A stretch of DNA of 64,000 nucleotides from Candidatus Scatosoma pullicola. GTDB lineage: Bacteria; Bacillota; Clostridia; Christensenellales; Borkfalkiaceae. Of the stretch, positions 6,261 through 6,526 are shown one piece after another. The translations under genes were made by a program, and so were the position numbers. The first letter of the stretch is position 1. Every line of letters starts with the position of its first letter. The notes under the pieces were generated by a model. That model saw nothing but the letters and a program-made list of their open reading frames with translations. It was not told the DNA's origin and did no database searches. The stretch is taken from contig DVGN01000088.1 in NCBI GenBank assembly GCA_018712725.1, positions 12,715 to 76,714 on the forward strand. Direction: 5' to 3'.

Positions 6261-6335
6261 ATGGTTTAAGTTGGGGGAAACGCGTATATACTACGCAATA
6301 CATTGTCGGGCTTGCGTTTTTACCGTCTTATCCAT

Positions 6336-6526
6336 GCCTTTCCTTTGTCAAAAAGGGGAGGCGGTGCACCCACCAATCATGCCTCCCCTTATGGTAAGGG
6401 GAGGTGTCGAGCGGAGCGAGACGGAGGGGATAAGAAAAGTCCGCTTTCGATTCAGCAAATCGGAAACCGAGCAGACAATCCCTCAGTCAGCTGCGCTGAC
6501 AGCTCCCTTTGCACAAGGGAGCCATA
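6336..6526 (+). repeat. Modular hairpin repeat element, full copy L1 (module A 6336-6436, module B 6461-6526)
   Basis: Module A is a CCTCCCCTT-loop-AAGGGGAGG hairpin, a short GNA-loop hairpin, then CGGAGGGGATAAGAA. Module B is GAAACCGAGCAGACAATCCCTCAGTC, a variable hairpin, then the CTCCCTTTGCACAAGGGAG hairpin. The same architecture recurs at 21600-21769, 35719-35946 (reverse) and 46786-46938. Confidence 0.85.

Follow-up and report, generated by a model that had tools for sequence, protein, structure and literature searches.

What are the hairpin-rich repeats that recur between genes of Candidatus Scatosoma pullicola, and how did they come to be dispersed? We examined this question in a 64,000-nucleotide stretch of assembly GCA_018712725.1 (contig DVGN01000088.1, positions 12,715 to 76,714; hereafter the window), for which an initial annotation made from the sequence alone had proposed a modular, hairpin-built family of intergenic repeats, similar to BOX elements and repetitive extragenic palindromes (REPs) and composed of a module A and a module B. 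This description was borne out, while the identity of A and B, polymorphism between strains and two further modules, K and X, had been overlooked. The basic building block is one ~57-nt unit, here called U, in two diverged subtypes, A and B. The family is a new one within the known kind of interspersed mosaic palindromic repeats, similar to BOX and to bacterial interspersed mosaic elements (BIMEs) but not a demonstrated member of either. The interpretation we consider probable is that these are lineage-specific, non-coding interspersed mosaic DNA repeats of the BOX, REP-BIME or REPIN kind, presumably dispersed in trans by a hairpin-recognizing enzyme.

Across the window, the conserved cores of these repeats were clearly overrepresented. 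The exact sequence CGGAGGGGATAAGAA occurs six times against 0.33 expected (positions 6422, 21639, 21946, 35807 on the minus strand, 46530, and 46810), a count reached in 0 of 100 shuffles, and ACAATCCCTCAGTC occurs four times, also against 0.33 expected (6475, 21715, 35757 on the minus strand, and 46887). For a hairpin of sequence CTTTGCACAAGGGAG, 1.4 matches would be expected and 10 were found, some of them in a 40-nt tandem array at 6507-6641. Based on a codon-usage gene call cross-checked with Pfam matches from related contigs, every copy lies between genes, in agreement with the earlier statement that none falls inside a credible coding sequence, and the sequence at the sites listed there for full copies and extra modules is as it was described. 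The copies are confined to four gaps: from rpoC to a metallophosphoesterase gene (gap 1), between a hypothetical gene on the plus strand and a convergent AraC-type gene on the minus strand (gap 2), between a hypothetical gene on the plus strand and a convergent cyclic-di-AMP receptor gene on the minus strand (gap 3), and from proA to proC (gap 4). In gaps 2 and 3, the convergent genes have their own terminators, separate from the element, and the copies lie outside these terminators, while copy 1 is located 3′ of the rpoC terminator and 5′ of the next gene's own promoter. Added together, the repeats represent ~1.7 kb (2.6% of the window). Neither reading frames nor start codons are conserved between the window copies, which rules out reading the elements as small open reading frames (ORFs), and no coding potential was seen. 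The Shine-Dalgarno-like and anti-Shine-Dalgarno-like strings that had been noted in the stems do exist as letters, with no start codon conserved at a fixed distance from them.

Alignment by eye of many instances revealed the organization of unit U. It comprises, in order, a 10-bp G/C-rich hairpin, TG, a small hairpin, and the purine box GGAGGGGATAAGAA. The large hairpin has the form CCTCCCCTT(A/T)-loop-(T/A)AAGGGGAGG, and the small hairpin is either 5 bp long or 7 bp long with two tandem G.A pairs, in both cases with C-GNA-G closing. The B type reads backwards, from ATCCCTCAGTC through a variable hairpin and CAG to the hairpin CTCCCTT-TGCAC-AAGGGAG. A covariance model built from 37 A-type units only, with no B sequences (model R1), recovered the window's six A units with scores of 36-80 bits. 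Along its full length, it also matched each of the four B modules, in these cases on the opposite strand (E-values from 1e-5 to 8e-4), and it likewise found inverted B units in loci from other species. A full copy is accordingly an inverted pair of diverged units, and module B, initially taken for an independent module, is instead an inverted and diverged form of A.

As a result of this pairing, a full copy is an imperfect inverted repeat of ~115-230 bp around a variable linker, with arms of ~50-58 nt. The outer ends of the pair, CATGCCTCCCC...GGGAGCCATG, are conserved and were seen in 22 independent composites. Three linkers are recurrent, namely a short hairpin GTTCGG-AAA-CCGAAC, a longer type-1 hairpin, and a type-2 linker containing GGGGCAGGGATTTGAC. 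A ends in GGAGGGGAT, which is complementary to the ATCCCTC with which B starts, so that a single strand could form either a series of local hairpins or a single long, irregular one. Units also occur as solitary copies, as B followed by A, as B-A-B, and head to tail, a range of arrangements which indicates that the family is a mosaic rather than a fixed element. Additional modules are nested in or appended to the pairs, including a 40-nt tandem hairpin (hC), the 126-nt unit X, and the 191-nt module K.

The four gaps of the window illustrate this mosaic character. In gap 1, a solitary hairpin of the large, hA type (CCTTTCCTTTGTCAAAAAGGGGAGG, 6337-6362, plus strand) precedes the A unit of copy 1 (6380-6439, plus strand; 76.1 bits with model R1, E-value 1e-24), which is composed of the hairpin CCTCCCCTTA/TAAGGGGAGG, a small hairpin of the long version (GTCGAGC-GGA-GCGAGAC), and the purine box. 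A type-1 linker hairpin, TTTCGATT..AATCGGAAA (6440-6474, plus strand), connects it to the inverted B unit (6475-6524, minus strand; 22.4 bits with the A-only model, E-value 1e-5), with ATCCCTCAGTC and the hairpins GTCAGC-TGC-GCTGAC and CTCCCTT-TGCAC-AAGGGAG. The 40-nt tandem array (6507-6641, plus strand) consists of 3.4 copies of an hC hairpin and a G-rich spacer. In gap 2, the A unit (21598-21656, plus strand, 62.2 bits) is followed by a type-2 linker with GGGGCAGGGATTTGACGACGG and a small hairpin (21657-21714, plus strand), by the B unit (21715-21766, minus strand) with degenerate hC hairpins next to it (21792-21854), and by a solitary hA hairpin (21869-21889) and a second A-type unit (21906-21963) that has no B partner (plus strand, 74.9 bits). 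Copy 3, in gap 3, is inverted, with its A unit on the minus strand (35804-35861, 73.6 bits), a type-1 linker (35771-35803), its B unit on the opposite, plus strand (35721-35770, 22.5 bits), and extra hA-type hairpins at 35879-35902 and 35926-35940. Finally, gap 4 includes two copies of unit X (46163-46438, plus strand; ~126 nt each, 150 nt from start to start), an A unit (46492-46547, plus strand, 80.4 bits), a 280-bp cassette in which a type-1 linker, module K, and a half unit are combined (46548-46827, plus strand, with the 191-nt K at 46589-46779 on the same strand), a type-2 linker (46828-46886, plus strand), and a B unit (46887-46937, minus strand; 17.2 bits, E-value 8e-4). What had been described as a separate extra module (46466-46546) and full copy (46786-46938) are the two halves of one composite split by this cassette, as indicated by other strains in which the cassette is absent or present in several copies.

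The variation of the hairpins offers insight into the molecule in which they are maintained. The small hairpin falls within an unconstrained run of Ns in our search patterns, so that its variation is unbiased. Observed versions are GTCAC/GTGAC, GGCAC/GTGCC, GGTGC/GCACC, GATGC/GCATC, GTCGCA/TGCGAC, GCCTG/CAGGC, and the long GTCGAGC/GCGAGAC. Covarying pairs of this hairpin in alignment A2 include 30-44 (UA21/GC7/AU1/CG1), 31-43 (CG28/UA9), and 32-42 (AU11/GC9), and the pair closing the loop of the large hairpin, 12-18, is found as AU (19 units) or UA (17 units). The covariation score is 0.201, compared to 0.077 in shuffles (none of 500 shuffles as high), and collapses once the partners are slid by 1 to 3 columns. 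Because copies within one genome are related, the stem types, of which there are at least four, represent subfamilies rather than independent events. Taken together, the ~700 stem cells of the large, small, and variable hairpins include nine G:T and 14 A:C mismatches. An RNA transcribed from a single strand would tolerate G.U but not A.C, and with G:T no commoner than A:C, the U stems are without G.U tolerance, which favors DNA over RNA and makes plausible the single-stranded DNA role raised in the initial annotation. The GNA triloops reported there are also real, with GAA, AAA, GCA, and GGA in the A type mirrored as TNC loops (TGC, TAC, TCC, and TTC) in the B type. As the B loops are complementary to the A loops, each strand displays GNA loops in one unit of the pair. 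The hairpins are predicted to fold as single-stranded DNA, and their RNA folds are far more stable than those of shuffled sequences (z ~ -6.7). We conclude that U units are palindromes kept at the DNA level. Compensation in their stems could result from selection on a hairpin or cruciform substrate, or could arise mechanistically from template switching or repair in quasi-palindromes.

Comparisons to established classes of structured repeats supported the earlier view that the element belongs to no named RNA family. A gathering-threshold scan of the window against Rfam 15 and E-value scans of gaps 1 and 4 yielded no relevant match, the best sub-threshold matches being unrelated miRNA models, and a known RNA family was thus ruled out at both gathering and permissive thresholds. 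A CRISPR array was ruled out by the lack of repeat-spacer periodicity with unique spacers, an integron attC site by the lack of RYYYAAC/GTTRRRY ends, and an intrinsic terminator by the lack of a T-run following the hairpins on the element strand.

The family extends well beyond the window. Among species-representative genomes, an exact two-block pattern was found at 10 loci only, nine of which are in metagenome-assembled genomes (MAGs) titled Clostridia, Eubacteriales, Acutalibacteraceae, or Oscillospiraceae; the other, a Gemmatimonadaceae contig, is probably a chance match. Scanning metagenomes with the exact pattern detected at least 120 contigs, with two samples at ~5x coverage contributing ~42 contigs each. 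Two of these, L038 and L148, overlap the window at 98.6-99.3% identity and hence derive from the window's species, which is also represented in ENA assemblies ERZ28573849, ERZ24773338, ERZ1643249, and ERZ1643251. Among the matches listed, 45 of 80 lie at most ~150 nt from the end of their contig, as is typical of a repeat that disrupts short-read assembly. Across 120 contigs among the matches listed, there are 165 A cores, 73 B cores, 17 K modules, and 7 X units. Of the titled MAGs, the nearest is E10__bin181 ("uncultured Clostridia bacterium"), which belongs to a different species (82-88% identity in shared genes) and in which one 3.8-kb contig carries modules in all three of its intergenic gaps. 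There are at least dozens of units per genome, and the genome-wide abundance anticipated from the four copies of the window is matched by the metagenome contigs and by their frequent breaks near the element. The A pattern and the 5′ end of K were both absent from the viral contigs scanned, and a phage origin was ruled out.

Strains were compared on contigs encoding proteins identical to ProC, PyrR, and a nucleotidyltransferase of the window. Where ProC is 100% identical, the proA-proC gap measures 531, 811, 961 (the window), 1241, 1280, or 1396 bp. The shortest allele (L019) is a plain A-linker-B pair. The 280-bp cassette is flanked by a 40-nt direct repeat, AAGGGGAGGTGTCACGAAGTGACGGAGGGGATAAGAAAGC (window positions 46508-46547 and 46788-46827), and is absent from L019, present once in the window, L012, and L014, and present at least twice in L013, L017, and L011, while unit X varies from zero to two copies in this gap. 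In some strains, the variable hairpin of the B unit reads GGCTATCGCCGCC, while others have ATGCTGCGCATGCC as in copy 2, indicating exchange between copies. At the rpoC gap, with flanking proteins 100% identical, lengths are 499, 717, or 869 bp, the longer alleles carrying a complete X and a K cassette, and the array of 40-nt hairpins ranges from two to five units. Gap 2 is 516 bp in all places shown. All resolved indels are bounded by direct repeats, either the 40-nt repeat or repeats at the level of modules, and whole modules are gained and lost by recombination or slippage.

Two further observations concern repeats at other junctions. The pyrB-pyrC gap (9232-9375 in the window) has a 144-bp allele with a hairpin and no repeat, and a 282-bp allele (L022, L025, and L026) in which a solitary B unit is accompanied by a second hC hairpin. 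The two alleles, which are related by replacement rather than insertion, also diverge in the final five codons of pyrB before becoming alike again at GGGCAGGTATTTGAC. In L016, L021, and L022, which encode an identical ProC or PyrR, the repeat is joined to different upstream genes (hydrogenase, FMN reductase, and GrpE), either through rearrangement at the repeat or through chimeric metagenome assembly.

Module K differs from the U units in its organization. It begins with an 8-11-bp hairpin, GCAAAAAG(G/A)GC...GC(A/T)CTTTTTGC, around an invariant 12-nt loop (GTCACTTGTTAT), continues through several predicted helices to a −10-like TGTATAA(A)T (TGTATAAAT, conserved as TGTATAAT), and ends in an A/T hairpin, GTTAAATTTTTT-loop-AAAAAATTTAAC, followed by GAAAC. 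This 3′ hairpin is found with five fully compensated stems (GTTAAA, GTTACA, GTTGCA, GTCAAA, and GTACCA) as well as loop flips. Its left flank is always (A/C)AATCC, representing either the start of a B core or GTAAATCC after an A core, while its right side is either a half A unit or CCCATACAATCC with the rest of B; in the latter case, K is flanked by an imperfect direct repeat, CATA(A/C)AATCC. These boundaries were drawn from changes of context, with no empty site. K is also found in L011-L026 and in many of L030-L149, and a second internal variant can contain an X unit (L016 and L106). In K helices, G.U variants occur at eight pair positions and A.C variants at one, a pattern suggestive of constraint as an RNA read from A to B (two-sided sign test, ~0.04, with a helix prediction in which G.U is treated as paired). 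The gap containing K had no Rfam match at E ≤ 1, and a simple sigma-70 scan called no promoter in gap 4, so that the TGTATAAAT box is only a lead. K may be an RNA or a mobile promoter. It is very unlikely, by analogy with IS110- or TnpB-like systems, that K would be the guide or bridge-type RNA of a non-autonomous RNA-guided element landing on U palindromes, with its recombinase supplied in trans. No long, gene-bearing version of K was found in the fetched loci, and the long "K" of L133 was ruled out as such an element, being a truncated K beside a DeoR-type gene. Unit X, in turn, looks like a separate, MITE-like family (MITE, miniature inverted-repeat transposable element). The first copy (46163-46288) is bounded by a perfect 12-nt inverted repeat, TTTGAAGCGTCA / TGACGCTTCAAA, the left arm of which overlaps the proA stop codon, and the second lies at ~46314-46438. 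Beyond the proA-proC gap, X was also found in gap 1 of other strains and inside the K variant mentioned above.

The distribution of units relative to genes is strongly oriented. From gene calls on the window and 130 loci, where duplicate sampling of sites inflates the counts but not their ratio, A units in co-directional gaps are sense in 27 cases and antisense in three, and B units show a ratio of 16:1. Thirteen lie in convergent gaps, compared to four in divergent gaps. In the window, the plus strand is G-rich for genes of both orientations and thus presumably the leading strand; among the six A units, five are read in its direction. This pattern would be predicted by replication-coupled insertion as well as by selection against antisense copies, and the GC skew of short contigs was too noisy to separate replication from transcription as its cause. 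Three loci (L112, L138, and L139) apparently follow genes on the lagging, C-rich strand, while two or three loci oppose their genes. No gene class was found consistently beside the element across loci.

A related polarity was observed for GGGCAGGG, a sequence that forms part of the type-2 linker. It occurs 28 times in the window against three expected, both in genes and between them, with 20 occurrences on the G-rich plus strand and eight on the minus strand (examples at 21668, 21977, 29817, 33939, 40839, 42679, 43090, 44012, and 47380), and the extended form GGGCAGGGTTG occurs nine times, where 0.04 would be expected. The sequence is similar to leading-strand polar octamers of the FtsK-orienting polar sequence (KOPS) type, the E. 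coli KOPS octamer being GGGNAGGG.

How, then, would such units have spread? Under the interpretation of U as mosaic DNA repeats, the original dispersal would have been that of a non-autonomous element moved in trans by an unlinked, hairpin-recognizing enzyme, for which a single-strand activity of the HUH/RAYT-like (REP-associated tyrosine transposase) or IS200/IS605-like type would be the most natural candidate. Present diversity would then derive mostly from unequal recombination, slippage, and gene conversion, and copies would be tolerated chiefly in convergent gaps and, between co-directional genes, in sense orientation. Several results weigh against this interpretation. ORF clustering across 130 loci (~0.94 Mb) identified no protein family that recurs beside the elements in more than three loci, and no RAYT or transposase adjoins any copy in the window or in these loci. 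No GTAG stands beside any hairpin. All-against-all comparison of loci yielded no clean pair of filled and empty sites with a target duplication, and since every polymorphism can be explained by recombination between repeats, transposition is deduced from dispersal only. The copy counts rest on metagenome assemblies, in which duplicate sampling of one site and repeat-induced misassembly are possible. Finally, the strong sense bias and the G.U-tolerant helices of K are hints that the family acts, at least in part, at the transcript level. Regarding the enzyme itself, a scan for HUH...Y motifs in the fetched loci returned no matches, no transposase-like ORF is present among the called genes of the window (not all of which were scanned against Pfam), and eight genes with units on either side all have housekeeping roles.

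A different type of transposition would apply if the A-B pair were a classical MITE, i.e., a deletion derivative of a DDE-type insertion sequence (IS) with the ~57-nt units as terminal inverted repeats (TIRs) and a transposase cutting double-stranded DNA encoded elsewhere. The inverted repeat formed by the outer ends CATGCCTCCCC...GGGAGCCATG in the 22 independent composites, the composite size of 115-180 bp, the recovery of B in inverted orientation by the A model, and the precedent of pneumococcal BOX and RUP, which have been explained as MITEs (PMC3049150), all fit this scenario. Yet no target-site duplication or outside direct repeat is visible in the 22 composites, no clean empty site was seen among strain pairs, solitary, B-then-A, and head-to-tail units are not predicted by transposition of a TIR-bounded element, no IS with such ends was seen in the fetched loci, and a double-stranded TIR requires neither perfectly compensated internal hairpins nor GNA loops, so that we regard this origin as unlikely. 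Just as unlikely, in our view, is a functional RNA, in which copies would be transcribed with their neighbors as mRNA stabilizers, processing sites, or regulators sequestering Shine-Dalgarno sequences, with K acting as either a small structured RNA or a mobile promoter and leader. The 27:3 sense bias in co-directional gaps points in this direction, as do the three elements (L112, L138, and L139) following genes on the apparently C-rich strand, the stability of the RNA folds, the excess of G.U over A.C positions and the five compensated versions of the 3′ hairpin in K, and its conserved −10-like TGTATAAT. The orientation bias is, however, equally expected from replication-coupled insertion, given a plus strand that is the G-rich leading strand, and G:T and A:C mismatches are equally rare in U units. 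The position of copy 1 between the rpoC terminator and the promoter of the next gene, that of copies 2 and 3 outside the terminators of convergent gaps, the lack of a promoter in gap 4 by a simple scan, and the lack of an Rfam match or a consistently associated gene class argue against this role as well.

Alternatively, the palindromes could be host-recruited DNA sites that bind a chromosomal protein (a nucleoid-associated protein, gyrase, or a recombinase) and are kept by selection rather than by selfish spread, a role reported for REP and BIME sequences. Points in favor are the invariance of the purine box GGAGGGGATAAGA and of the loop of the K 5′ hairpin next to variable stems, although the former is partly imposed by the search pattern, the presence of the family in several related MAG lineages, and the stability of some loci between strains (e.g., the 516 bp of gap 2). 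In contrast, modules vary in presence, number, and type at the same locus while flanking proteins are unchanged, which is unexpected for a position-specific role, and we consider this explanation quite improbable.

The interpretation as mosaic DNA repeats can be further evaluated against known systems. Pneumococcal BOX elements have reverse-complementary 5′ and 3′ modules, variable tandem internal modules, length variation through unequal crossover, enrichment in convergent gaps, and nested repeats (PMC3049150). The U family is similar to BOX (boxA-boxB(n)-boxC, in Streptococcus pneumoniae and S. suis) in being composite, non-coding, intergenic, and extensively folded into hairpins, with complementary end modules, variable tandem internal modules, length differences between strains, enrichment in convergent gaps, and nesting, a likeness of architecture and behavior drawn from the published description rather than from compared sequences. 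It differs from BOX in its hosts (Clostridia/Oscillospirales MAGs), in its G/C-rich two-hairpin unit with a purine box, and in the occurrence of single units and other orders. REP and BIME sequences are short extragenic palindromes clustered in alternating orientation (PMC2817692; PMC3733652). The U family shares with the REP, BIME, and REPIN sequences of Proteobacteria high-copy palindromes at the DNA level, linker motifs, inverted pairs as the commonest arrangement, and hot spots of rearrangement and insertion. U units are extragenic multi-copy palindromes, and they form alternating clusters, with two recurrent linker types and A-B, B-A, and B-A-B arrays. Unlike REPs, they have no GTAG tag, no RAYT in the loci searched, and a ~57-nt unit with two hairpins instead of a 20-40-nt sequence with one, and of their four main small-hairpin types, only two show CGTC, on the complementary strand. 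The published survey of GTAG/CGTC REPs covers other phyla and never mentions Firmicutes or Clostridia (PMC3733652).

Further likenesses are restricted to parts of the family. Module K alone, with internal helices that appear RNA-constrained, resembles palindrome-associated transposable elements (PATEs, derived from IS200/IS605) and IS110-type elements: like PATEs, it has no TIRs, a hairpin at each end, a fixed 5′ motif, and a location within a palindromic unit, and unlike PATEs and IS110, it is linked to no TnpA, TnpB, or IS110 recombinase gene in the loci. Targeting of REPs by IS110 and other IS families has been documented (PMC1525189, PMC11208160). As for the small hairpins of U, they share C-GNA-G closing (GAA, GGA, GCA, GTA, and AAA) with mini-hairpins of the d(GCGAAGC) type. 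These mini-hairpins are exceptionally stable, a property that the nearest-neighbor DNA fold of a GNA mini-hairpin (-3.2 kcal/mol) does not reproduce, and a role of such stability in the U family is a conjecture.

Other features of the window were noted alongside the repeats. A promoter-like TTGCCT-17 nt-TATAAT with an upstream TG (6687-6722) ends 6 nt before the ATG of the metallophosphoesterase gene, which suggests a leaderless mRNA. The sole Rfam match in the window is an 88-nt tRNA (57587-57674, minus strand), which by its length is of the type with a long variable arm. A gene of lower G+C encoding a BspA-type leucine-rich-repeat protein (20127-20939) is present in the window and L028 and absent from L027 and L029, corresponding to an 815-bp indel between ~20-nt direct repeats, AACGGGACGCCGGGACATA. 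Finally, an 876-aa ORF with an InlB B-repeat-like domain (54682-57312, minus strand) has repeats with a 78-nt period at 56195-56826; its product is 866-977 aa long in other strains, and glutamate synthase genes replace the locus in some.

New repeat families of this kind are common, and the U family stands out as unusually well structured, in a poorly studied gut lineage, and with what is possibly an RNA-level passenger. It breaks short-read assemblies of uncultured gut Clostridia and marks apparent differences in gene order between strains. A model of unit U could accordingly improve the assembly and annotation of these MAGs and provide a marker for strain typing, as BOX does in pneumococcus and REP in enterobacteria. 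The G/C-rich double-hairpin unit with its GNA loops also represents a concrete substrate with which to seek the responsible enzyme. If K is indeed an expressed RNA, the family would be a vehicle spreading a structured RNA or a promoter across the intergenic space of these genomes.

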